The notes under the pieces are model-generated. The model was not told where the DNA came from and made no database searches. It worked only from the letters and a program-made list of their open reading frames with translations. From sequence record OK570374: DNA of 64,000 nucleotides; one strand, 5' to 3'. The position numbers and the translations under genes are program-made. This stretch comes from Escherichia phage UoN_LG358_1. Position 1 is the stretch's first letter. The number at the start of each line of letters is the position of its first letter. Below are positions 11,733-58,300 of this stretch, in pieces.

Positions 11733-13016
11733 ATGGCAAAGATTAACGAATTACTGCGCGAGTCAACTACAACTTCTAGCAGCTCTTTAGCTCGTCCTAA
11801 TTTGGTTGCTTTGACCCGTGCTACCACTAAATTAATTTACAGCGATATTATCGCAGAACAACGTACCAATCAACCTGTAGCGGCTCTTTATGGAGTAAAA
11901 TATCTAACTCCAGATAATGAGTTTAGTTTTCAAACTGGTGCTACTTATGGCGGACAAATCAGTGAAAAAGACCGTGAAACTATTCCAGAATTAACTAGTA
12001 AAACTCAAACACTTGCGGTTGGTGATTATTTTAAATATCAAAATGTTGTGTATAAAGCTTTACAAGCTAATCCGTTAGCATCTACAAGCGCAACAGATTT
12101 ATCAGACGCACTGCAAGAAGGATTAATTTCTCTTACTTGCCGTTTAGTTCCAGACGCTGCTAATACTGAAAAATTTGAAGATACCGACGTTGAAATTAGT
12201 AGTGCTGTATTTGAAGTAAATAAATGGAATGCTCCTGTTAAAACTCGTAAATTGAAAACCTCGTTGACTGTCGAACTTGCGCAGGATATGGAGTCAAACG
12301 GGTTCGATTCTCCAGCATTTTTAGAAGATTTATTGGCTACAGTTATGGCTGATGAAATTAATAAAGATGTTCTTCAGTCACTGATTACGGTGTCTAAGCG
12401 GTACAAAGTTACAGGTGTTTCTGATAATGGTATTGTAGACTTGAGTTACGCAAATGCCCCGGAAGCTTCACGCAAACTGTATGAAATTGTGTGTGAAATG
12501 AATTCAGAAATTCAGAAAACAACTTCTTATTCGGGTACTTACGTAGTAGCTTCTTCTAGAGCAGCCGCATTGCTGGCAGGTTCAGGCTGGTTAAAACATC
12601 GTCCAGAAGATGATGAATGGTTGCCTTCTACCGCGTATGGATATCTGTTAAATGGGCTTCCTGTATTCTGCGATGTAAATAGTCCTCTGGATTATGTGAC
12701 GGTAGGCGTTAAAGAAAACTACGGTGGAAAAGAAGTAGTTGGTTCTATTTTTTACGCTCCATACACAGAAGGATTAGACCTAGATGACCCGGACCATATC
12801 GGTGCATATAAGGTAATTGTTGACCCAGATAGTTTGCAACCATCAATTTCATTGATGATACGTTATGCTTTGTCTGCTAACCCGTATACAGTAGCTAAAG
12901 ATGAGAAAGAAGCTCGCATCATAGATGCTACTGACATGGATAAAATGGCTGGACAAAGTGATATGTCATATTTGGTTGGGGTTAAACTGCCTAAAATAAT
13001 TTATGAGGCGCCTTAA
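11733..13016 (+). CDS. 24: capsid vertex protein
   Basis: 427 aa; N-terminus MAKINELLRESTTT.. matches remembered T4 gp24; TATAAATA at 11700..11707. Confidence 0.9.
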   Translation: MAKINELLRESTTTSSSSLARPNLVALTRATTKLIYSDIIAEQRTNQPVAALYGVKYLTPDNEFSFQTGATYGGQISEKDRETIPELTSKTQTLAVGDYFKYQNVVYKALQANPLASTSATDLSDALQEGLISLTCRLVPDAANTEKFEDTDVEISSAVFEVNKWNAPVKTRKLKTSLTVELAQDMESNGFDSPAFLEDLLATVMADEINKDVLQSLITVSKRYKVTGVSDNGIVDLSYANAPEASRKLYEIVCEMNSEIQKTTSYSGTYVVASSRAAALLAGSGWLKHRPEDDEWLPSTAYGYLLNGLPVFCDVNSPLDYVTVGVKENYGGKEVVGSIFYAPYTEGLDLDDPDHIGAYKVIVDPDSLQPSISLMIRYALSANPYTVAKDEKEARIIDATDMDKMAGQSDMSYLVGVKLPKIIYEAP

Positions 13017-14296
13017 TGCAAAAAATAGATAATTTAATTAGAGAATCTACTGTCTCATCGGCCAACTCGCTTGGCCGTCCTAATTTATTGTCATATACAA
13101 AAGCTACAAATAAGCGTATTTTCAAATCTCTCGTTGCTGAACAGAAAACTAATCAGCCGATTGCTGCGTTATATGGAATACGCGTTCTTAATCCAGTTGA
13201 TAAAATGACATATTTAGGCGGCGCTACTTATGCTGGTCAAATTGGTTTGTCTGAACGCGAATCACTACCTTTAGCTTCTACTCCATCCCAATCTTTTAAT
13301 AAAGGTGAGATGTTTTTATTTGAAGATGTTGTTTTTAAAGCGTTAGAAGATAATCCATTCGCTGGAACAGCTGAGACTGATATGAGAGAAGTTATTTCAG
13401 AAGCTATCGCTGCTGGACATATCAGAATGGTATCTGATGCCGCTAACACAAACAAGTTTGAAAATGGTCACCCAGAAATTGCCGAAGCTGGATTTCGTAT
13501 TGATAAATGGCAAACTGAAGTTAAATCCCGTAAATTGAAAACCTCAATAACTGTTGAGTTAGCACAGGATTTAGAGTCTAATGGTTTTGACGCTCCAAAT
13601 TTTATCGAAGATGTTTTAGCAGTACAAATGGCTGAAGAAATTAATAAAGATGTTCTTCAGTCATTGATTACAGTGTCCAGCCGGTTTAAAGTACAAGGTA
13701 TATCGGAAAAAGGTGTTTTAAATTTAACCGATCCTAAATACGATAATGCTCAAGACCGCGCGCGTACTCTTTATTATTATATGTGCGAAATGAATTCCGC
13801 AGTTCAGAGACAAACATCATTTTCTGGTACATACGCAGTAGCTTCATCTCGATGTGCCGCGATTTTAGCTGCATCCGGTTGGGTTGAAAAATCAGAAGAC
13901 CAAGATGAGTTAGCATATGGTGTATTAAAAAATGGTTTGCCACTCTATGCTGATGTAAACAGCCCATGTGATTACGTTATTGTCGGTGTAAATGCTGATT
14001 TAGGTGAAGGACAGACGGTTGCATCACTGTATTATGCTCCGTATGTTGAGGGGCTAGATGATGTTGATGAAGAAGGTGATACTTCTGTTGGCGAGTTCAA
14101 AGTAATTGTTGACCCAGATAGTTTACAGCCTACTATTGCTCTTTTAGCTCGGTATGCATTAACTGCTAATCCATATACAGTAGCTAAAGATGAGAAAGAG
14201 GCACGAGTTATTGATGGTGCTGACATGGATAAAATGGCTAATCAAAGCCAATTAAGTTCTTATCTTGGCGTTAAGTTACCACCGCTTGAGAAATAA
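13016..14296 (+). CDS. second gp24-like vertex protein paralog
   Basis: 426 aa; colinear similarity to the preceding ORF (LIRESTVSS..GRPNL, VKSRKLKTSITVELAQDLESNGFDAPNF, ANPYTVAKDEKEAR); TAATG start/stop overlap. Confidence 0.8.
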   Translation: MQKIDNLIRESTVSSANSLGRPNLLSYTKATNKRIFKSLVAEQKTNQPIAALYGIRVLNPVDKMTYLGGATYAGQIGLSERESLPLASTPSQSFNKGEMFLFEDVVFKALEDNPFAGTAETDMREVISEAIAAGHIRMVSDAANTNKFENGHPEIAEAGFRIDKWQTEVKSRKLKTSITVELAQDLESNGFDAPNFIEDVLAVQMAEEINKDVLQSLITVSSRFKVQGISEKGVLNLTDPKYDNAQDRARTLYYYMCEMNSAVQRQTSFSGTYAVASSRCAAILAASGWVEKSEDQDELAYGVLKNGLPLYADVNSPCDYVIVGVNADLGEGQTVASLYYAPYVEGLDDVDEEGDTSVGEFKVIVDPDSLQPTIALLARYALTANPYTVAKDEKEARVIDGADMDKMANQSQLSSYLGVKLPPLEK

Positions 14297-28767: not shown

Positions 28768-28797
28768 ATTATAACACATCCTTCCATGGATGTAAAC
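28768..28797 (-). promoter_or_regulatory. early-type promoter (-35 GTTTACA, 17-nt spacer, -10 TATAAT)
   Basis: Read on the minus strand; drives the ORF 28449..28739. Confidence 0.6.
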
Positions 28798-33267: not shown

Positions 33268-33461
33268 ACAAGTTCTCTTAACATTGTAATAGGAGAAAGT
33301 TCTTGTTCCATGTGCACAGACCGATTTCCGTCAACCCAATCAATTTCATATGCAGCTAAAACACCGTACTTAGCAATAGGTTTAATCACATGGCAGATAG
33401 TTCCAGGAATGCCAGATGATTTAAGTTGTACTGTCTGAAGTTCTTTGTATTTTGCTTTCAT
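33264..33461 (-). CDS. hypothetical protein
   Basis: 65-aa ORF; 4-nt overlap with downstream gene. Confidence 0.35.
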   Translation of the reverse strand: MKAKYKELQTVQLKSSGIPGTICHVIKPIAKYGVLAAYEIDWVDGNRSVHMEQELSPITMLRELV

Positions 33462-33703
33462 ACTTTTTCAACCTTAGCCAAAATAACATCACTCCATATG
33501 CCAAACGGAGGGAGAGCTTCCTTAACTTTGTGGAATTCTGTTGTTTTATCTTCCCAGAACCATAGTTTTATTTCTCTAGTTACTTGGAAAGAATCCAGCC
33601 CCCGACCTGATGGTGAAACATCAATTACATCAAATGTTAACTTGTAAGTTGGATAAAGACGCTTAATTAACTTAGTCAATAATTTCATAATACAACCACC
33701 CAT
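33458..33703 (-). CDS. hypothetical protein
   Basis: 81-aa ORF; overlapping coupling. Confidence 0.4.
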   Translation of the reverse strand: MGGCIMKLLTKLIKRLYPTYKLTFDVIDVSPSGRGLDSFQVTREIKLWFWEDKTTEFHKVKEALPPFGIWSDVILAKVEKV

Positions 33704-33846
33704 GACGGAATTTCAAAGAAATCGGGAGCATCAATTTCATACTCAACCGAATGATTGCGCACACGTACTTCAATTACATCAATCATTGGGCAATTAATCA
33801 TACGTTCAAATTTGGCAGCTACAGATTTAGCAACAGATACAATCAT
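33694..33846 (-). CDS. small ORF (50 aa)
   Basis: Not in track; GAGGAA 6 nt upstream of ATG; stop overlaps the next ORF start. Confidence 0.35.
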
Positions 33847-33865
33847 TTTAAATTCCTCAAGTGTT

Positions 33866-33879
33866 GGGCCCGAAGGCCC
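33866..33879 (-). other. GC hairpin without clear U-run
   Basis: GGGCC-cgaa-GGCCC between ORF 33885..34244 and the 50-aa ORF. Confidence 0.35.
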
Positions 33880-33884
33880 TTTAA

Positions 33885-34244
33885 TTAAAATTCAATTTCG
33901 TTAGCAACAACATCCCAAAGTGCTTCAAGTTGTTCTTCAGTAGCTCTTTTACCAATAGCCCGCCGTAGATAAAGCTTGACCAAAAGAGCCCGATTAGTTT
34001 TCCAAGAAGGATGAGTACTTAAATCGCGCCTGAATATTTCATCATGAAAACCAACCTTTATTTCTGAACCATTGAACTGAACATCTAAAGTTGGACCATT
34101 TTCAAAACTGATGAAAACGTAATTATCTTCCCAGTACATATCAATCTGTGCTACTGTACCGTTGTTATGTTCCCACAATAAAGTGGTAGAAATATCCCAA
34201 TCGTTGTTTTGAACGTATTTACGTCTAAAGTTAGTGAAGTCCAT
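33885..34244 (-). CDS. hypothetical early protein
   Basis: 119 aa; own early promoter (34283..34312) and GGAG RBS. Confidence 0.5.
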   Translation of the reverse strand: MDFTNFRRKYVQNNDWDISTTLLWEHNNGTVAQIDMYWEDNYVFISFENGPTLDVQFNGSEIKVGFHDEIFRRDLSTHPSWKTNRALLVKLYLRRAIGKRATEEQLEALWDVVANEIEF

Positions 34245-34282
34245 GTTATTCTCCGTTATATCTGTTTGTTTATTGAGTTTAT

Positions 34283-34312
34283 ACTATAACACATACAACG
34301 GAGGATGTAAAC
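34283..34312 (-). promoter_or_regulatory. early-type promoter (GTTTACA-N17-TATAGT)
   Basis: Minus strand; upstream of ORF 33885..34244; inside a 23-nt repeat. Confidence 0.6.
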
Positions 34313-34314
34313 GG

Positions 34315-34803
34315 TTAGACAAAACTTATTTTGACAGTTTTCTTAGCTTCTAGCTTAAGCTCTGTGATAAAAACACGATAATTATCACTTGGTGCCATAC
34401 GTAGTTCTTCTGCAATTTTCTTGGCTTTTTCTAAAGTAAAGAGGTTCTTTTCATTTTCTTTAAAAACGACTGCACTTCCACATTCAAGAGAGCGAACAAC
34501 CATGAATGTTTCAGGTCCTTCAGTCTCAGATTTAAACTCAATTTTTCCTTGATATACTTCATCAAAATCAAACAGGTTCCAGCCATTCCACTGCGAACCA
34601 CAATCTGCACCATCATAACGACCGCGAAATTGAGCGTCCAAAAATTCTACTTCAGTGATACACTTTCCACCAACGGATACTTTAGTGGCTTTAAGCCAAG
34701 CATTTCCGAACAAACATTTGATTTTGGCGTCAAATGAGTTCAAATCGACATCCCATTTATCAGTCATACGGAATACATCACCAACTTCAAAACATGTTTT
34801 CAT
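34315..34803 (-). CDS. hypothetical early protein
   Basis: 162 aa; own early promoter (34853..34882) and GAGGAA RBS. Confidence 0.5.
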   Translation of the reverse strand: MKTCFEVGDVFRMTDKWDVDLNSFDAKIKCLFGNAWLKATKVSVGGKCITEVEFLDAQFRGRYDGADCGSQWNGWNLFDFDEVYQGKIEFKSETEGPETFMVVRSLECGSAVVFKENEKNLFTLEKAKKIAEELRMAPSDNYRVFITELKLEAKKTVKISFV

Positions 34804-34852
34804 AATTTCCTCATTAAATTTAAACTAAGGCGGTATTGGTTATTGAGTTTAT

Positions 34853-34882
34853 ACTATAACACACTTTTATGCTGATGTAAAC
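34853..34882 (-). promoter_or_regulatory. early-type promoter (GTTTACA-N17-TATAGT)
   Basis: Minus strand; upstream of ORF 34315..34803; same 23-nt repeat as 34271..34293. Confidence 0.6.
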
Positions 34883-34898
34883 GGCAGACTTTAGAAAC

Positions 34899-34924
34899 AA
34901 AAAAGGGACTCCCGAAGGAGTCCC
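34899..34924 (-). terminator. rho-independent terminator after the small basic ORF
   Basis: GGGACTCC-cgaa-GGAGTCCC with minus-strand UUUUUU. Confidence 0.8.
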
Positions 34925-34934
34925 TAACATTGCT

Positions 34935-35114
34935 TTATGCTTTCTTACGCGGATTACCAAAAGCAGCATCATGAGCAAGAACTTTACGAGCACGAGATGC
35001 TAGCTGGTCAGCCAATGGATTGATACGAGAGTTAGACCCACGCTTGTAGCCAGCGCGTTTAGAGGTACCAACAACTTCTTTTACTGCGGTTTTTGCTTTA
35101 GATTGCTTAGCCAT
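34935..35114 (-). CDS. small highly basic protein (59 aa)
   Basis: Not in track; MAKQSKAKTAVKEVVGTSKRAGYKRGSNSRINPLADQLASRARKVLAHDAAFGNPRKKA; strong hairpin plus U-run terminator right after the stop. Confidence 0.5.
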   Translation of the reverse strand: MAKQSKAKTAVKEVVGTSKRAGYKRGSNSRINPLADQLASRARKVLAHDAAFGNPRKKA

Positions 35115-35267
35115 TTTAATATTCCATATTCGGAGTAATACAACGAACTGGTCTTATTGACATTGCCAGTTCTCAAGCCCTCGAAGGGTACTTAGCACTT
35201 TGGTAGCTTACACCCAAGGTTTTGAATTGTTAACGTGGTGATAACCTTGAACGTCCACATCATACAG

Positions 35268-35516
35268 TTACTTCAAAGTAACCACAAAATGACGAACTGC
35301 CTTACGAGCTGAACTGCATAAGCCTTTAGCGAATTTTAATTCGTCTTTTAAAAGAAGAGCATCACGAAAATCAGCTTGCACTGGATTAAGGTGTTTAAAC
35401 CCTTTCAGTACTTCAAGAGCTTCGGCCAATACATCAATTGATGCGCCGTAGTTTTCATGACCTGCATTCCAGGCAGTGCGTTGCAGAGAAAGAGCGTGTT
35501 CAAGTTGTTTGTTCAT
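35268..35516 (-). CDS. rIII: rIII-like protein
   Basis: 82 aa (T4 rIII is 82 aa) at the T4 rIII position beside gene 31. Confidence 0.6.
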   Translation of the reverse strand: MNKQLEHALSLQRTAWNAGHENYGASIDVLAEALEVLKGFKHLNPVQADFRDALLLKDELKFAKGLCSSARKAVRHFVVTLK

Positions 35517-35545
35517 TTAAAAAGCCTCAAATGAGGTGAATAAAA

Positions 35546-35582
35546 GGAAGGCGGTATAAGAAGTTTAATCCCTGCGCCTTCC
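35546..35582 (-). other. long-loop stem between gene 31 and rIII
   Basis: 8-bp stem GGAAGGCG / CGCCTTCC with 21-nt loop; T-rich tract follows on minus strand. Confidence 0.3.
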
Positions 35583-35617
35583 ACCATGTAATCAGAAAGA
35601 TTACAATAATATTTATA

Positions 35618-35941
35618 TCACTTATAAACGCACGCTAACGATTTATAATGACAAGTAACAAATTTTTGTTTAATTTCTTTAGGCTGCTTAATGCCTAACG
35701 CAACCAATGGATGAGTTACATTGCGAATATTACCAACTGGTAGCGGAGTTAAATCACCAACTTCTACGAAGCCAGCGGGTACATCAGCACCAATTGAATA
35801 TACTTCACACATTTCAGGAAGTTGGCCCTGAATTTCTTTACCCAAGAAAATACCCGAATCTGAAATTTTTTCATCACCAGATTGTGCTGGTTCTGATACC
35901 AAAATAACAAATTCGCCTAGAGCTTTAATAGGAAGTTCCAT
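35618..35941 (-). CDS. 31: GroES-like co-chaperonin
   Basis: 107 aa; ..[15 protein letters not shown].. and C-terminus [16 protein letters not shown] match remembered T4 gp31. Confidence 0.9.
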
Positions 35942-40234: not shown

Positions 40235-40725
40235 AATTTGACAATTACCTCTACAATATCGTCTTGAGATAATCCATTCCATAAGACGTGATTTGGAGCA
40301 TCTGACTGGGACACTTTAAATCCTTGAATTTCATCTGCCATTTCTGACGAATCCATATACGGATTATGAATACCTAAGCGATGCTTACCATAAATTGGGT
40401 CAACCGTTATATAGCATTTACAATCATTAATAAGCACGTTAGGCTGAGTGATATTAATAATCACTTCTGCTCCATATTTTGTAAGCTGATTTTCAAGAAA
40501 ATTTTTCATTTCTTCAACAGCTTCAGGCATCGCTTCTTGGCGAGCCTCTGTAACTTTATTGTTGTACTCTTTTTGCTTTTTGCGCTTTTTCTGATCCGTG
40601 GCGAATGCCTTTCTGAGGTCAGTTAAGTATCCAACCCGCCGGGAACCTTTGAATACCGAGATACCGTCGTGATGAGTACCATACTTTTCTACTAAAGCTT
40701 CGTTAGTGATAAGTTGTAAGTTCAT
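40225..40725 (-). CDS. alc: Alc-like protein (host transcription shutoff)
   Basis: 166 aa (T4 Alc about 167) at the T4 alc position; early promoter at 40756..40785; no motif confirmation. Confidence 0.5.
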   Translation of the reverse strand: MNLQLITNEALVEKYGTHHDGISVFKGSRRVGYLTDLRKAFATDQKKRKKQKEYNNKVTEARQEAMPEAVEEMKNFLENQLTKYGAEVIINITQPNVLINDCKCYITVDPIYGKHRLGIHNPYMDSSEMADEIQGFKVSQSDAPNHVLWNGLSQDDIVEVIVKLCK

Positions 40726-40755
40726 TGTTAATCTCCGTTTAGTTGGTGTAAGAAC

Positions 40756-40785
40756 ATAGTATCATAACAAAACGGAGATGTAAAC
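40756..40785 (-). promoter_or_regulatory. early-type promoter (GTTTACA-N17-TACTAT)
   Basis: Minus strand; upstream of alc-like ORF. Confidence 0.5.
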
Positions 40786-48776: not shown

Positions 48777-49123
48777 TGTTTTCCAACTTTAAAGAGAATT
48801 TCAGCGCCTTTCTTTTCAAAACGTCCTTGCATCCAAAGGAGACCATTTTCAACTTTCATATAACCAAGATTAATATAGTCCAACATTTGACGATTACTGA
48901 AAAACGCTTTAAATGTTCCATGGTTAGAACGTACATATATACCATTAGTGCACGCAGAGTGGATATTCTCCAACGGCGCCCTAACCTCATAAAACCCGTG
49001 AGGAATAGTAACATATTTCTCTGGATTTCGTTTAAACTGGTCAATCGTAGGGGCCATTCCATCGATAACCAAAGCCCAGTTCTTTTGCTTCTCTTCAACA
49101 ATTAAATCTAATTTAGCAGTCAT
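48773..49123 (-). CDS. hypothetical protein inserted between frd and td
   Basis: 116-aa ORF; stop overlaps td start (ATGA); 12 nt after frd stop. Confidence 0.5.
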   Translation of the reverse strand: MTAKLDLIVEEKQKNWALVIDGMAPTIDQFKRNPEKYVTIPHGFYEVRAPLENIHSACTNGIYVRSNHGTFKAFFSNRQMLDYINLGYMKVENGLLWMQGRFEKKGAEILFKVGKQ

Positions 49124-49135
49124 ATTATTTCCAGT

Positions 49136-49729
49136 TTAAATTTTTACATAAACATCTTCTGAAATATTAGTAAGTTCGTCAATATTATACCAATGAGTCT
49201 CAACAAGTTCCATATCTTCACTGATATTCCATATAAAATCTGCTGAGAGTTTAATATCAGAATTTACACGGTGTTTTTTGCGAATAGTTGTGCATATAAT
49301 TTTATCTGCGTAAATTCTTGAATGCTCAATAATATGTGCGCCACCAATAACAGAATAATTGGCATCATCGCGTTGAATAAAACAATTATACCCAAAATCA
49401 TGCCCAGAAACTTGAACTTTATTACCTTCTAAAAATTGTTGAAACTGTGTTTCATTAATATAGAGCTCGGCAGTTTGTCCTGATTTAGTTTTTGCATAAG
49501 GACGAGAAAAATCTTGCACTACAATATGAGAACGTCCATGAAGTTTTCCTCTTAAGCTCATAAATGTTTTTGCACCCATAATAAGAACAGTATCTTTAGT
49601 TCTGGAAGCAAAATTTTGCATGTCTTGCTTGATATGTCCCCATGGAAGACCAGTGTTTAACCCAAACGCAAATTCATTTTTATTGTCGACAGTTTTAGTA
49701 GGGCAATACGCAAAAATTAACTGAATCAT
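49136..49729 (-). CDS. frd: dihydrofolate reductase
   Basis: 197 aa (T4 Frd 193); position upstream of td. Confidence 0.9.
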   Translation of the reverse strand: MIQLIFAYCPTKTVDNKNEFAFGLNTGLPWGHIKQDMQNFASRTKDTVLIMGAKTFMSLRGKLHGRSHIVVQDFSRPYAKTKSGQTAELYINETQFQQFLEGNKVQVSGHDFGYNCFIQRDDANYSVIGGAHIIEHSRIYADKIICTTIRKKHRVNSDIKLSADFIWNISEDMELVETHWYNIDELTNISEDVYVKI

Positions 49730-49824
49730 TATCCTTGCCTCATTTTACAATTAGGACAAATTCCACCTGCGAACAAAAGTCCGCTGCCGCAATATTTACA
49801 CTCCCAGTCGGTTAAAATTTTCAT
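49729..49824 (-). CDS. putative 31-aa zinc-ribbon peptide
   Basis: Not in track; MKILTDWECKYCGSGLLFAGGICPNCKMRQG with two CxxC pairs; AGGAA RBS; ATGA and TAATG overlaps with neighbours. Confidence 0.3.
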   Translation of the reverse strand: MKILTDWECKYCGSGLLFAGGICPNCKMRQG

Positions 49825-50030
49825 CTTAAGTTCCTAATACGTTCACGGATGATATTCAAAAACTGCCGTGTCATTTCGATGTTAGCTTCTCGCCATAAGA
49901 AGTTACTATTCATATCATTATATTCCGCGGTCACATTGTCGTTAAGCTCACATAATGCACACAATTTGCCGTGTTTTACTGCATCAGAAATTGCTTTATC
50001 AAACTCTTCTTTTGACATTGTAATTTGCAT
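49821..50030 (-). CDS. hypothetical protein
   Basis: 69-aa ORF. Confidence 0.4.
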   Translation of the reverse strand: MQITMSKEEFDKAISDAVKHGKLCALCELNDNVTAEYNDMNSNFLWREANIEMTRQFLNIIRERIRNLR

Positions 50031-50356
50031 TATTTGTTTGAACCCTTTTTAGAGGCTAAAACCATGGTACGAAGCATTCTAAGGCCTTTATCAACAGCTT
50101 CAGCAATTTCGCCCGCCACGTTCTCATTGAATAGACCGAGAGTTCCTGATTTGATATCTTCCATTAAAATGTAGTTTATGTCATTTTCAGTTAAAGAAAT
50201 TTCTGGACCATTTCCACACGAAAAATTAATCTTACAAAATACATTCTGTCCACGTTGTTCTTGGTAGCGAATATTAATGTGTGTCACACCAGGAACATGG
50301 TCAAACTGACAACGAACATTAACTTCAGGAGCAGCAGAACACCAGATATCAGCCAT
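50030..50356 (-). CDS. hypothetical protein
   Basis: 108-aa ORF; 1-nt overlap. Confidence 0.4.
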   Translation of the reverse strand: MADIWCSAAPEVNVRCQFDHVPGVTHINIRYQEQRGQNVFCKINFSCGNGPEISLTENDINYILMEDIKSGTLGLFNENVAGEIAEAVDKGLRMLRTMVLASKKGSNK

Positions 50357-50631
50357 TATAATTCTTCCTTAGCTTCTTTAAATGATTTTTTGAAATCTTC
50401 AACATATTCGATAGGAATCCAGAACCCAGAACCATAACCGTCTTCATAGCATGGGCACATATCGCAAAACTGTTGCCAATGAACAGTTTTACCTTCTACG
50501 GTGAAGGGAGCTTCCATTTCGCACAAAGACTCTTCAATAAGTTCAATCATCGCTGGATTTTTATCATAGATGCAGAAATTCCAAACACCTTTAACTGTGG
50601 AATCTTTAATGCTTTCACGCTGTAATTTCAT
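50356..50631 (-). CDS. hypothetical acidic Cys-rich protein
   Basis: 91 aa; early promoter 50662..50691; GAGGA RBS. Confidence 0.45.
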   Translation of the reverse strand: MKLQRESIKDSTVKGVWNFCIYDKNPAMIELIEESLCEMEAPFTVEGKTVHWQQFCDMCPCYEDGYGSGFWIPIEYVEDFKKSFKEAKEEL

Positions 50632-50661
50632 TTTATTATCCTCATTTGTTTTGATAGGGTT

Positions 50662-50691
50662 ATAGTATCATAACCATAACCCGTTGTAAAC
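50662..50691 (-). promoter_or_regulatory. early-type promoter (GTTTACA-N17-TACTAT)
   Basis: Minus strand; within 45-bp repeat 50646..50691. Confidence 0.5.
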
Positions 50692-50693
50692 GG

Positions 50694-51074
50694 TCATTTG
50701 AAAATTTTTTGTAAAAGTTCAATGATTTCGTCTACGTTTTGTTTTGTAACAACACAATGAATTTTAGTTACACCGTCAGTATCTTTACATTCGTCGTCAA
50801 GAACTGGTTCTTCATATTCGCGAAAGCAATAGAACTCATTATCGTAAAGTTCAAAATAACAATCACCTAGACCATCGTCGCAAAAGCACTCACCATTAGC
50901 GCAGACAATTTCAGTTACAAAATATTGGTTGTCAAATAATTCTATAGATTTTACTTCAAACCAACCGCCATTTTCGTGGATAATATCTACCATCTCAGTA
51001 TTATTCAAAGGGCTTAAGCCAATAAAATCATTAATAAGCTCTGGGACTAGTTCGTATTTTTTGCCTATTTTCAT
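50694..51074 (-). CDS. hypothetical acidic Cys-rich protein
   Basis: 126-aa ORF, D/E- and C-rich. Confidence 0.45.
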   Translation of the reverse strand: MKIGKKYELVPELINDFIGLSPLNNTEMVDIIHENGGWFEVKSIELFDNQYFVTEIVCANGECFCDDGLGDCYFELYDNEFYCFREYEEPVLDDECKDTDGVTKIHCVVTKQNVDEIIELLQKIFK

Positions 51075-51088
51075 TTTGATTTCCTCAA

Positions 51089-51316
51089 TTATTCTTTAAT
51101 CAAACCCATGTAAAACATTTTATCTTCAGGTTCCATGCCATCGCAGTACTCAATTTCCATAAAACGATTAATAGCTTTTAAAGGACCATTAATGACAACG
51201 TTCATGTTCCATGATTTGGAATTCTGTGAATTAGCGATACGAAGTTCTGGGTATCGATTACGAATAACTTCTTCAATGTATTCAAAATCTACAACATCAA
51301 TATCAACACTAGCCAT
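51089..51316 (-). CDS. hypothetical acidic protein
   Basis: 75 aa; early promoter 51347..51376; GAGGAA RBS. Confidence 0.45.
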
Positions 51317-51346
51317 TTTATTTTCCTCGTTTGTTTTGATAGGGTT

Positions 51347-51376
51347 ATAGTATCATAACCATAACCCATTGTAAAC
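51347..51376 (-). promoter_or_regulatory. early-type promoter (GTTTACA-N17-TACTAT)
   Basis: Minus strand; within the second copy of the 45-bp repeat (51331..51376). Confidence 0.5.
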
Positions 51377-51378
51377 AA

Positions 51379-51636
51379 TTAATTGATATCACTCATATAC
51401 ATTTCGATATCTTCATATTCGCAAATTTCCAAATACTCACGGATATCTTCAACTTCACCAATGATTTCAACTAAAGGCCATCCGCCAGCGGGTCCACGTT
51501 CTGCTATAACGTTAAACTCCAATTTACCAGGAAGAATTTCCATGAACCGAGTGCAATCATCAAATTCTAAATCAATAATCATTCCGCCTTCGTCTTTGAT
51601 AATTTCACATACTAAGTCAAGTTCTAAACGTGCCAT
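51379..51636 (-). CDS. hypothetical acidic protein (MARLELD paralog A)
   Basis: Start at second ATG (AAGGAA RBS); MARLELDLV..GGWP; own early promoter. Confidence 0.45.
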   Translation of the reverse strand: MARLELDLVCEIIKDEGGMIIDLEFDDCTRFMEILPGKLEFNVIAERGPAGGWPLVEIIGEVEDIREYLEICEYEDIEMYMSDIN

Positions 51637-51667
51637 GATATTTTCCTTCATTTGTTTTGATAAGGTA

Positions 51668-51697
51668 ATAGTAACACAGTTTAAAGCGGATGTAAAC
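51668..51697 (-). promoter_or_regulatory. early-type promoter (GTTTACA-N17-TACTAT)
   Basis: Minus strand; upstream of MARLELD paralog A. Confidence 0.5.
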
Positions 51698-51795
51698 AGT
51701 TAATTGCAAATTTCTGCATCAACTTTACTCTTTCACAACTTAATTCATTGCCTAGAAAAATCATATACAATAGTCATTTGAACTCAATAACATCG

Positions 51796-51826
51796 TATGA
51801 GGTTATACCATAACTATAACCTCATA
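51796..51826. other. perfect 12-bp hairpin/palindrome
   Basis: TATGAGGTTATA-ccataac-TATAACCTCATA; no flanking U-run. Confidence 0.45.
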
Positions 51827-51840
51827 ATGTAGTATACGTA

Positions 51841-52101
51841 TTATTGTTCCATAAATTCATCTAGCAACCAATCAATGTCTTCCCATTGATTATCTTCAAG
51901 CCATTTGCGGATATTTTTTTCAGACCCGCGAAGATAAATCACTGGCCAGCCGCCGCCGGTGCCTTCTTCGATTATAAGGTCAAAATCAAGACCATGGTCA
52001 ACATCATAAAAACGGCTTCCATCCTCAAAAATTAAATCAGTTGCAATTCCACGCTCATTGCGGTGAACTTCAGCTACAATATCAAGTTCTAAACGTGCCA
52101 T
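51841..52101 (-). CDS. hypothetical acidic protein (MARLELD paralog B)
   Basis: Start at second ATG (GAGGAA RBS); MARLELDIV..GGWP; own early promoter. Confidence 0.45.
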   Translation of the reverse strand: MARLELDIVAEVHRNERGIATDLIFEDGSRFYDVDHGLDFDLIIEEGTGGGWPVIYLRGSEKNIRKWLEDNQWEDIDWLLDEFMEQ

Positions 52102-52132
52102 TTTCAATTTCCTCATTTGTTTTGATGAGATA

Positions 52133-52162
52133 ATAGTAACACAGTTTTTGGAGGATGTAAAC
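52133..52162 (-). promoter_or_regulatory. early-type promoter (GTTTACA-N17-TACTAT)
   Basis: Minus strand; upstream of MARLELD paralog B. Confidence 0.5.
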
Positions 52163-52184
52163 GGTTAGCTCCAGAAACAACAAA

Positions 52185-52204
52185 GGAGCCCGTAGGCTCC
52201 TTTT
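52185..52204 (-). terminator. hairpin downstream of gene 32
   Basis: GGAGCC-cgta-GGCTCC; U-rich flank is weak on the minus strand. Confidence 0.45.
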
Positions 52205-52208
52205 ATTA

Positions 52209-53114
52209 TTAAAGACCGTTCAAAATGTCGTCCAGGTCATCATCGTCAGATGAACTAACATCTGAAGTAGAATTGTTAGTTGTAGAACCAGATGAGAAAG
52301 CTTCCATATCTTTATCAAAAGCGTCCAGGTCATCAGCTACTTTATCAGCCTGTCGTTCAGCTTTTGCTGCGGCACCGCCCATAGCAGCAGTTCCCATAAC
52401 TTTCTCAAATTTCTTTTGGTTGTCGTCAAAAGATTTAAATTTATCTTTAGAGGTCATTTCAGTTAAATCAACCATCTGGTCATTGAGAGATTTCTGAACA
52501 GATTCATCGTCAATATTTGGGATTTCAGATTGGCCCAAGAATTTCGATTCGTCGTAGTTACTAAAGCCTGATACTTTCTTAACTTTCAGTACAAAGTTTG
52601 CGCCTTCATAAGGACAAGTTACATCAACTGGAGTTTCACCCATATCAGTATCAACTGCAATCATTGCGTTGATTTTGTCCCAAATTTTCTTACCAAAACG
52701 ATATTTGAAAACTTTACCTTCATTTTCTGGAGCAGCCGGGTCTTTAATAACCAGGATATTCGCCCAGTAAGAAGTTTTGCGTTTCAGTAGTTTATATTCT
52801 TCTTGGTTTGTGTTATAGCTGTCGTTTTTAGACAGATGCTGGCATACCGGGCAAGAATCGTAATCACCGTGTGTAGATGTGCAATTTTCAATATACCACT
52901 GATTATTTTTCTTAAAGCCATGATTAATCAAAATTGCAAACGGAGCAGCTTCTTCATTTTTGGAAGGCAGAAAACGAATCACCGCTTGGCCATTACCTGC
53001 ATTATCGAGCTTAAGTTTCCATTCACCTTTATCTGAATCTTGGAAACCACCTTTGTTACCAGACAGAGCGGCCAGTTGAGCTTGAAGTTGAGCGGGATTT
53101 TTGCGTTTAAACAT
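52209..53114 (-). CDS. 32: single-stranded DNA-binding protein
   Basis: 301 aa; zinc site [11 protein letters not shown]; translation matches remembered T4 gp32. Confidence 0.95.
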
Positions 53115-55346: not shown

Positions 55347-58300
55347 ATGGCCGAATTAAAACGTAAATTCAGAGCGCAAGAAGGTCTGGACGCTGCGGGT
55401 GAGAAAGTCATCAATGTTGCCAAGGCAGATCGGACGGTCATGTCTGACGGTGTTAACGTTGAATATCTCATCCAAGAAAACACATTACAACAATATGACA
55501 GCACTCGTGGTTATCCTGCGCAGTTTGCAGTCATTTATGATAACCGCATTTGGGTATCAAATCGTGAAATTCCTGAACCAGCTGGTGATTTCACCGAGCT
55601 TTACTGGAATTCCGTTCGTACTGATGCAAAATGGAAAACAGTATCGTCTGGAACCACAAATTTGAAATCAGGTGATTTTATTTCGGCTGACACTGCCGGA
55701 AGAACGGATATGAAATTTATTCTTCCAAGTAATCCGCAAGATGGTGATACAATTTTTATTAAAGATATCGGCGGTCAGCCAGGTTACGCTTCTCTTACCG
55801 TAGATGCTTCAGTTCAATCAATACTTTGGCTTGGAAAACAAGTTAGAACTGTACAGATGACGCATCCATATTCACAAATGGTTTTTGTTTTTAGCAATCG
55901 TTTGTGGCAGCTTTACATAAGTGATAATGAAAGAGTAGCAATTACTATTACTCCCGCATCTATTCATGAAGCACAAGCTAATGAATTCTTAGTTCGTCGC
56001 TATACTTCTGGCGCTCCGGTACGTGTTAAATTACCTAAGTATGCCAACAATGGTGACATGATTAATTTCACTGATTTAGATGCTATGAATCCGCAATTTC
56101 ATCTTTATGTTGATACTTATGATGAGAATACAAGCATTGGTTCAGTTGGAACTCACCAGTTAATTTCACGCACTTCAGGTGATGGATTTATAATATTCGA
56201 TGATTCTGAAAACTTGTGGCGCGTATGGGATGGTGATCTTCGTACTCGTCTTCGTATTATTCGTGAAGACACTATTGTTAGGCCTAATGACCATGTTATG
56301 GTATTTGGTGTAAATAACACTGAAGTAAAAACAGTGACTGTCACTTTACCACCAACTCCTGCAATTGGTGATACTGTAAAAATTTCTCTGAACTATATGA
56401 GAAAAGGTCAAACTGTTAATATAACTGCATCTGGCACAGATACAATTGCATCAAATGTTGCTTTACTTCAATTTCCTAAGCGTTCTGAATATCCGCCAGG
56501 AACAACTTGGGTACAAAACAAGACAATTTCATTTAATGGCGATACGTCTTATGTTCCAGTATTAGAACTATCTTACATTGAAGATAGTTCTTTAAAATAT
56601 TGGGTTATTGCTGAAAATAATCCTACAGTTGAACGAGTCGATTCAACAAGCGATTCAACCCGTAATCGTCTTGGTGTAATTGCTTTAGCTACTCAAGCTC
56701 AGGCAAACGTAGATTATGAAAATAATCCAGAAAAAGAAAGAGCTATAACTCCAGAAACTTTGGCTAATCGTATTTCTACTAAAATTCGCCGAGGTATTGC
56801 TCGTTTGGCTACTCAAGCTGAGCTTGAAGTTAAAACTGGTGGAACTCTACTTGATGACGTTATCGTTACTCCGAAAGTTTTGAATGACCGTATTGCTTTA
56901 GAAGACAGACAAGGACTTGCTGAATTAGCAACTCAGTCGGAAACTAATGATGGTGTAGACGATTCAAGAATTGTCACTCCTAAGAAACTTAATAATCGTA
57001 AAGCTTCTGAAATTTTAACTGGTATTATCGCTTTAGTAAAAACTGGTATAAGCACTTTAGCTGGTATAAATCGTGATACGAAAGGCACAAACGTATATGA
57101 CTATACTGATAATGAAAAAGCTGTAACTCCTGCTTCTTTGTTTGAAAATAAAGCTACATATACTTCGCAAGGCGGTTCTTATTTAGCTACAGAAACTGAA
57201 GTTATTCAAGGTACTCCTCATGACCCTAAAGTACCTACAGTTGTAACTCCGGTTGAATTACAAAAGAAAACTGCTACTGAAACTCGTATTGGTTTTACTG
57301 AAACTGCTACTCAAGTTGAAGTTGACGCAGGTACAGATGATTTCAGATATGTTACTCCTAAAAAATTAAATGGACGTAATGCTACTGAAACTTTAACTGG
57401 TATTTCACGAATTGCTACAGACTCTGAATTTTCAGCTGGCACATTAGATAATGTTATTTCAACTCCGTTGAAAATTAAAAATTACTTTTCTTCTGTTGCT
57501 CGTCATTCTGTTATTCCTGAATCTGGACTAGTTGAAACAGGGAACTTCTGGGACCATTATAACCTCGATATTCAAAAAGCATCTGAAACCCAACGAGGCA
57601 CACTCGCGTTGGCAACTCAGGTGTTGACTGATGCTGGTGTTGATGATACTACAGCTGTTACTCCTAAAAAGCTTCAAGCTAAAAAGACATCTGAAACTTC
57701 TGAGGGTATTATTCAAATAGCAACTCAGGCTGAGACTGTAGCTGGTATCGTTGGTAATAAAGCTGTTCCGCCAAAGCATTTGAAGTATGCTATACAGGTA
57801 CAAGCGGATTGGGAAGCAACACCTTTACGTAGAGGCCCAATTAAATTAACGGAAGGCGCATTAAGTTTTGTCGGTGATAAAGTATTTGGTTCGGGTGTTC
57901 AATTTAATGCTTTAACCGGTCTCTATGAAAACGATGATGCTAAATTAGCGTTAGGAAATTATTTCAAATCAGGTTATGCTGTATCTCCGTTTGAAATGAA
58001 CAAGACACTTCAAAACTTTTTGCCGATAAATGCAATTGCTGTTAATTCACACAAGTTAGATAATCTTGATTCAACCCAGTTCATTCGAAGAGATATCGAT
58101 CAGACAGTTGAAGGTTCTTTAACGTTAACCAAACAAACCAACACCAGTGCACCTCTAGTATCCTCTAGTACTGCGAAGTTTGTTAGTATGTTGGTTACCA
58201 CAGAAGCTACTATCGGTGACTCTACAAGTCACTCTGTGATTAATTTGGATGCGAAAACCAATAAATGGGTTATTGATGGCCAAGCTGATTCTTTATACTT

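Follow-up and report, generated by a model that had tools for sequence, protein, structure and literature searches.

A stretch of about 45 bp that carries a predicted promoter occurs twice in the variable interval that separates gene 32 from frd in the phage genome studied here, which raises the question of what these repeated elements are and whether, besides coordinating expression, they can shuffle genes. The original prediction had placed both copies in a family of eight early promoters and had held that such repeats can mediate recombination. The interval is bounded upstream by gene 32 (ssDNA-binding protein; 52209..53114, minus strand) and downstream by frd (dihydrofolate reductase; 49136..49729, minus strand). 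The window, i.e., the whole stretch of 64,000 nt that was analysed (OK570374), is that of a Gelderlandvirus, a T4-like Salmonella phage of the STP4-a/S16 group, with 99.3% identity to STP4-a and 97% to S16 over 49-53 kb. The window is mosaic: at 33-36 kb (compared over 33300-35800) it is nearest to SEA1 (99.2%; STP4-a 96.2%), and at 49-53 kb (compared over 49000-53000) it is nearest to STP4-a (99.3%), with SEA1 covering only 51% there.

Early promoters of T4 consist of an UP element, GTTTAC at -36 to -31, a TGn, and a sigma-70 -10 element (Hinton 2010, PMC2988021; Nolan et al. 2006, PMC1524935), and for the T4/PST pair the published early-promoter consensus is TTTACW-N17-TAYWAT. Promoters of T4-type phages also occur within a mobile regulatory cassette named PeSL ('promoter-early stem-loop'), described for RB49/phi1, T4/PST, and KVP40/nt-1 (Arbiol et al. 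2010, PMC2839356; Comeau et al. 2014, PMC4122927). For Gelderlandvirus (the S16/STP4-a group), a literature search turned up no report of either PeSLs or early promoters.

Eight predicted early promoters on the minus strand

The composite pattern GTTTACA-N14-TGn-TAnnnT has eight matches, all on the minus strand, compared with 0.02 expected from shuffled sequences, exactly the number that the original prediction had given. Half of them lie within 1.5 kb of the frd-32 interval (50662-50691, 51347-51376, 51668-51697, and 52133-52162) and the others outside it (28768-28797, 34283-34312, 34853-34882, and 40756-40785). In a relaxed scoring scan the eight sites formed a discrete top class, and the plus strand was without comparable sites. 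Every site has a -35 GTTTAC with 17 ± 1 nt to a TAnnnT -10, in line with the predicted 17-nt spacer, as well as a TGn extended -10, which had been overlooked. The -10 itself had been given as TAnTAT; this is correct for five sites, which have TACTAT (GTTTACA-N17-TAnTAT, five matches against 0.05 expected), and incorrect for the other three, which have TATAAT or TATAGT. A generic sigma-70 scan of the region (22 found versus 16.7 ± 4.4 expected) was neither enriched nor discriminating, and the eight sites were its only matches with a TG extension.

An ACC is conserved immediately 5' of GTTTACA, at -39 to -37, and a check for UP elements gave AT fractions upstream of the -35 of 0.59-0.86 (genome 0.63) and no consistent A-tract. 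The stop codon of the upstream gene lies 2-10 nt before the -35 at six sites, a terminator takes its place at the other two, and SD and ATG follow about 25-50 nt downstream of each promoter, so that all eight indeed precede a small ORF with an RBS. Orthologues of the T4 early genes alt.3, 30.7, alc, frd.1, and frd.3 are found downstream. T4 itself carries GTTTACA-N17-TACTAT before frd.3 and frd.1, at positions homologous to the cassettes B and A described below, and its frd.1 copy has the leader TACTATtaccctatcaaaac in common with the window. The T4 records NC_000866 and AF158101 hold no promoter annotation for cross-validation, and a literature search for transcript data on frd.1-frd.3 found nothing useful.

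It is extremely improbable that the sites are middle (MotA/AsiA-dependent) promoters, late promoters, or chance matches. The sigma-70-type -10 and the TGn are shared with T4 middle promoters; however, neither a MotA box (TGCTT) nor the late motif TATAAATA lies within 60-90 nt of any of the eight, which rules out a middle or late identity, and a full -35 GTTTACA at 17-nt spacing, in such excess over shuffled sequences, rules out chance. As a separate observation, the late motif has 11 plus-strand and six minus-strand occurrences across the whole window, and MotA-type middle-promoter matches number only two, both on the minus strand (36002 and 15982).

The match to the T4 consensus, the early-gene orthologues, and the absence of MotA box and late motif near the sites support the predicted early-promoter family. 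The eight sites are predicted T4-type early promoters, at which, judging from consensus and homology, transcription would initiate. Unmodified host sigma-70 RNA polymerase would read them right after infection, and each promoter, together with its own short leader and SD, would form a self-contained expression cassette before a small early gene.

Cassettes of the frd-32 interval and beyond

Four minus-strand cassettes crowd into the variable interval. Cassette A (50629..50701) stands upstream of the frd.1 homologue (50356-50631, minus strand; DUF5417) and comprises the stop codon TGA of frd.2 (50694-50696), the -35 GTTTACA (50685-50691), the TGn and -10 TACTAT (50662-50667), the SD GAGGA (50639-50643), and the ATG (50629-50631), with a hairpin (50657-50682) that overlaps spacer, -10, and discriminator. 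Cassette B (51314..51386) stands upstream of the frd.3 homologue (51089-51316, minus strand; FRD3 family, PF05798) and comprises a -35 at 51370-51376, a -10 at 51347-51352, a hairpin at 51342-51367, and an ATG at 51314-51316. Between A and B extends a module of 685 bp (50692..51376, minus strand), made up of the frd.3 homologue, the frd.2 homologue (50694-51074, minus strand; FRD2 family, PF03197), and one repeat copy.

Cassettes C and D precede two paralogues that are 40% identical and share the N-terminus MARLELD. Cassette C (51635..51707; promoter 51668-51697) is upstream of paralogue 2, is without a hairpin, and has the leader atcaaaacaaatga in common with A, B, and D. Cassette D (52100..52203) shows the classic terminator-then-promoter order: the gene 32 terminator hairpin (52182-52203) and its T-run come first, then the promoter (52133-52162), and then the SD and ATG of paralogue 1. 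The leader sequence atcaaaacaaatgagga is common to all four cassettes. In both MARLELD ORFs the first ATG lies inside the SD itself (aaATGAGGAaa; 52099-52116 and 51634-51651), and the second ATG (52101 and 51636), annotated as the start in Melville and AKM_NP4 and not in STP4-a and S16, is probably the true one. The small genes of the interval also include a DUF7247 gene. Paralogue 1 is followed by a 190-nt gap, in which lies a perfect 12-bp hairpin (51796..51826, minus strand; arms TATGAGGTTATA/TATAACCTCATA) that resembles the A/B stem but is without GTTTACA and TACTAT; it is probably a decayed ('half') cassette.

Gene identities at the four sites outside the interval were obtained by mapping onto the S16 annotation; all four are on the minus strand. 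The cassette of the gp130 homologue (34853..34925) repeats the order of cassette D, with a terminator hairpin (34904-34925) and T-run followed by the promoter (34853-34882). The cassette of the 30.7-like gene (34250..34312) has its promoter at 34283-34312, that of alc (40723..40785) has its promoter (40756-40785) directly after the rnlA stop, and the promoter of the alt.3-like gene (28768..28797), with a perfect TATAAT, comes directly after the alt stop.

Repeat identity and gene duplication

The two copies described as near-identical over 45 bp (50646-50691 and 51331-51376) match at 45 of 46 positions, and the repeat extends further than had been noted, to 63 bp with 3 mismatches (95%; 50629-50691 and 51314-51376). 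Taken over 73 nt, A and B are 90% identical, and weaker copies occur at 51635-51707 and 52100-52172. The second predicted pair, of 23 bp (34271-34293 and 34841-34863), is identical at all 23 positions and, when extended, at 96% of 28 nt; this segment of 23-28 bp is the -10/leader common to the sites at 34853-34882 and 34283-34312. Longer and more diverged direct repeats occur elsewhere in the window, namely, 290 nt at 70% (12153-12442 and 13436-13725), 149 nt at 79% (12810-12958 and 14099-14247), and three 110-nt copies at 63-71% (56917-57710). These probably represent internal duplications, either within structural or tail-fibre genes or between them.

Real promoters might be repeated merely as passive by-products of tandem gene duplication and of strong selection towards an optimal promoter, with no role in rearrangement, in which case the apparent deletions in relatives described below would be artefacts or unrelated events. 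For C and D, which precede the 40%-identical paralogues, an origin of the pair by tandem gene duplication is accepted here, and this fits such a passive history. The proteins behind A and B, in contrast, are unrelated, so that the A/B repeat is regulatory and a gene-duplication by-product can be ruled out for it; furthermore, its identity includes spacer and leader, on which RNA polymerase imposes no constraint.

Cassette-bounded differences among relatives

The frd-32 interval was compared with that of seven relatives. STP4-a is colinear with the window, and gene content differs in each of the other six. A check for deletions between the repeats in related phages, proposed along with the original prediction, was positive: AKM_NP4, CF-SP2, and SEA1 are all without precisely the A/B segment, and each retains one chimeric cassette. 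AKM_NP4 differs from S16 by one mismatch per flank (99.96%) and by the loss of 1,075 bp, the flank alignments overlap by exactly the 63-bp cassette repeat, and the segment that is gone is exactly the module between cassettes A and B. The single cassette of AKM_NP4 is chimeric, B-like upstream (aattaatt GTTTACAaT) and A-like downstream (gaggaTaataaaATGaaattaca), which places the crossover inside a 44-bp identical core. In CF-SP2 the same junction recurs in a Melville-like background, and identity shifts from 99.8% to 92.8% across the cassette, which indicates either a separate event or an exchange between lineages at the cassette. SEA1 is without the 685-bp A/B module and also without a 465-bp module between cassettes C and D; both are cassette-bounded, and a single cassette is kept at the A/B junction.

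The 23-bp pair is associated with similar differences. Melville and Merlin have a 30.8-like gene that the window is without, and the junction falls where the shared leader ends; the 30.7 cassette of CGG4-1 has a 30.8-type leader. This indel junction and this leader swap, together with the repeat-bounded deletions and chimeric cassettes at A/B, support the predicted capacity of the repeats for recombination and shuffling. In the frd-32 interval of CGG4-1, the -35 of cassette A marks the point from which the sequence is homologous to the window, three paralogue copies are present, and frd.3-frd.2 are absent; as this junction is not repeat-bounded, the absence is probably no assembly artefact. 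Given the order frd.3-frd.2-frd.1 in T4, the module is probably ancestral, and the differences of the relatives at A/B are probably deletions.

Not every difference in the interval is tied to a cassette. Among about eight distinct indel events, three to four are cassette-bounded. Four others lie away from cassettes, namely, those of gp155, gp156.1, and the DUF7247 gene and the duplication of frd.2, so that the cassettes are one route among several. The last of these events concerns S16, which has a tandem second frd.2 copy (gp159.1) bounded not by a promoter cassette but by a repeated 41-bp SD/start segment, whose window copy is at 51053-51093; this is a different, gene-start-based duplication route.

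That about half of the indels lie away from cassettes speaks for passive repeats, as does the fact that short-read assemblers can be misled by a 63-bp repeat; the deletions in AKM_NP4 and CF-SP2 could in principle reflect an assembler skipping the loop at that repeat, and for SEA1 an artefact is less likely because its flanks are divergent. However, the junction is common to three separately sequenced genomes of different backgrounds, the junction SNPs are chimeric, and the identity of CF-SP2 shifts across the cassette. Passive repeats with artefactual or unrelated deletions are thus considered very unlikely.

Very likely, then, the elements are T4-type early promoter cassettes of which the A and B copies recombine to excise or insert a module by the mechanism proposed for PeSLs. 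The 63-bp near-identical cassettes A and B would drive unrelated genes and flank the frd.3-frd.2 module, homologous recombination between them would excise or insert that module, and after the exchange one chimeric cassette would remain, still driving the next gene. Transcription initiation, its timing, and the recombination machinery used are what we infer from these sequence patterns.

Stem-loops and pairing between spacer and SD

An Rfam gathering search of the whole window gave no match, and a known structured RNA at the cassettes is thereby ruled out. By folding, cassette A has a hairpin of 10 bp that spans spacer, -10, and discriminator (z -2.6), cassette B a hairpin of the same type (z -4.4), and the T4 frd.1 promoter an equivalent hairpin at the position matching cassette A (z -3.7). 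The A/B hairpin is followed by UAUCAAAAC and not by a U-run. Canonical terminators (stem and T-run) were found at only two of the eight cassettes, just upstream of the promoters at 34853-34882 and 52133-52162, and folding of the cassette C site (51668-51697) gave no structure.

A scan of viral contigs yielded 29 distinct natural variants of the A/B type. Among these the spacer arm and the five bases that follow the -10 covary (AACCC/GGGTT, AGACC/GGTCT, AGCCC/GGGCT, and TACCC/GGGTA), and the anchored stem has a mean of 5.6 bp versus 3.56 ± 0.36 for permuted pairings, a value reached in 0 of 2000 permutations. The hairpin over the -10 is kept by compensatory change across T-even phages. Candidate roles for it are attenuator, RNA stabiliser, or DNA structure.

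A hairpin so maintained could also serve as the recognition element of a dedicated site- or structure-specific process that would take the place of general homologous recombination, and the authors who described PeSLs leave 'homologous or site-specific recombination' undecided. No recombinase is linked to the cassettes, though, and C and D recombined in SEA1 even though C is without a hairpin. The AKM_NP4 crossover may lie anywhere within the 44-bp identical core, as homology-driven exchange predicts. General recombination is, moreover, very active in T4-type phages. A dedicated process is therefore judged very unlikely, and the interpretation by homologous recombination between cassettes is retained.

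A second kind of pairing involves the SD. At 34283-34312 the spacer tcctccgttgtat can base-pair with the SD region ataacggaga (11 bp, z -4.5), and at 40756-40785 the spacer atctccgttt has its complement in the SD region aaacggagat (9-10 bp, z -2.5). Elsewhere in T-even phages such spacer-SD helices reach up to 14 bp. Among 61 distinct T-even cassettes, nine, in seven independent families, have a helix of at least 8 bp compared with 2.6 expected, a count reached in 0 of 1000 permutations. The SD at both window sites is GGAG, the target motif of RegB. The 5' arm of the helix precedes the predicted start, and masking of the SD would therefore be confined to read-through RNA.

Hairpins that mask the RBS and contain an internal promoter are known from the T4 genes e, soc, 49, and I-TevI (Uzan & Miller 2010, PMC3014915). 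As in these genes, the sites at 34283-34312 and 40756-40785 have, in silico, a helix that buries the SD and whose 5' strand is upstream of the predicted start. The T4 examples, however, involve late promoters (TATAAATA) and delay translation, whereas the promoters embedded in the window helices are of the early type. The spacer-SD sites of the window may therefore count as no more than a variant of the T4 e/soc/49/I-TevI kind, to which they do not themselves belong.

It is tentatively proposed, as a possibility that is more doubtful than not, that the cassette stem-loops are not incidental and that two subclasses of them insulate the cassettes transcriptionally and translationally. The first would be the hairpin over spacer, -10, and discriminator that is held by compensatory change. 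In the second, the spacer would pair with the downstream SD, often a GGAG target of RegB, such that transcripts from the cassette's own promoter would expose the RBS and read-through RNA from upstream would mask it. If true, insulation would explain how cassettes move between genomic contexts with expression undisturbed.

Relation to known systems and implications

Like T4 early promoters, the window sites have a GTTTAC(A) -35, a 17-nt spacer, a TGn, and a TAnnnT -10, and they lie on the early strand before early-gene orthologues. They differ from T4 early promoters in the ACC 5' of GTTTACA, in a preference for TACTAT, and in that an A-rich UP element is not evident everywhere. The resemblance to PeSLs concerns composition (an upstream stop codon, early promoter, stem-loop, SD, and ATG in one composite), location (clustering in a hyperplastic region, with decayed 'half' copies nearby), and topology, i.e., two flanking copies in one phage versus one chimeric copy in a close relative; the change from two cassettes to one was seen from S16 to AKM_NP4, from a Melville-like phage to CF-SP2, and in SEA1. 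The stem-loops are more diverse: those of T4/PST PeSLs are described as just upstream of the promoter, which holds for two of the eight window cassettes, whereas in two others the stem-loop covers part of the promoter at the -10, an arrangement also known from phi1/RB49, in a further two the spacer is paired with the SD, and one cassette has no stem-loop.

On the evidence of their sequences, the elements are of a known kind, T4 early promoters arranged as PeSL cassettes, predicted here in a genus for which no published description was found. Only the covariation of the hairpin and the spacer-SD pairing exceed published descriptions; they suggest post-transcriptional roles for the poorly understood 'stem-loop' half of the PeSL. 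The PeSL model is thus extended to another T4-like genus, and the cassettes add unannotated predicted early promoters to the genome annotation. The pair S16 and AKM_NP4 offers a clean natural case of gene loss mediated by a promoter cassette, with 1,075 bp lost at a 63-bp repeat. As this phage group is used for Salmonella biocontrol, the cassettes predict sites at which accessory genes may be gained or lost in production stocks.
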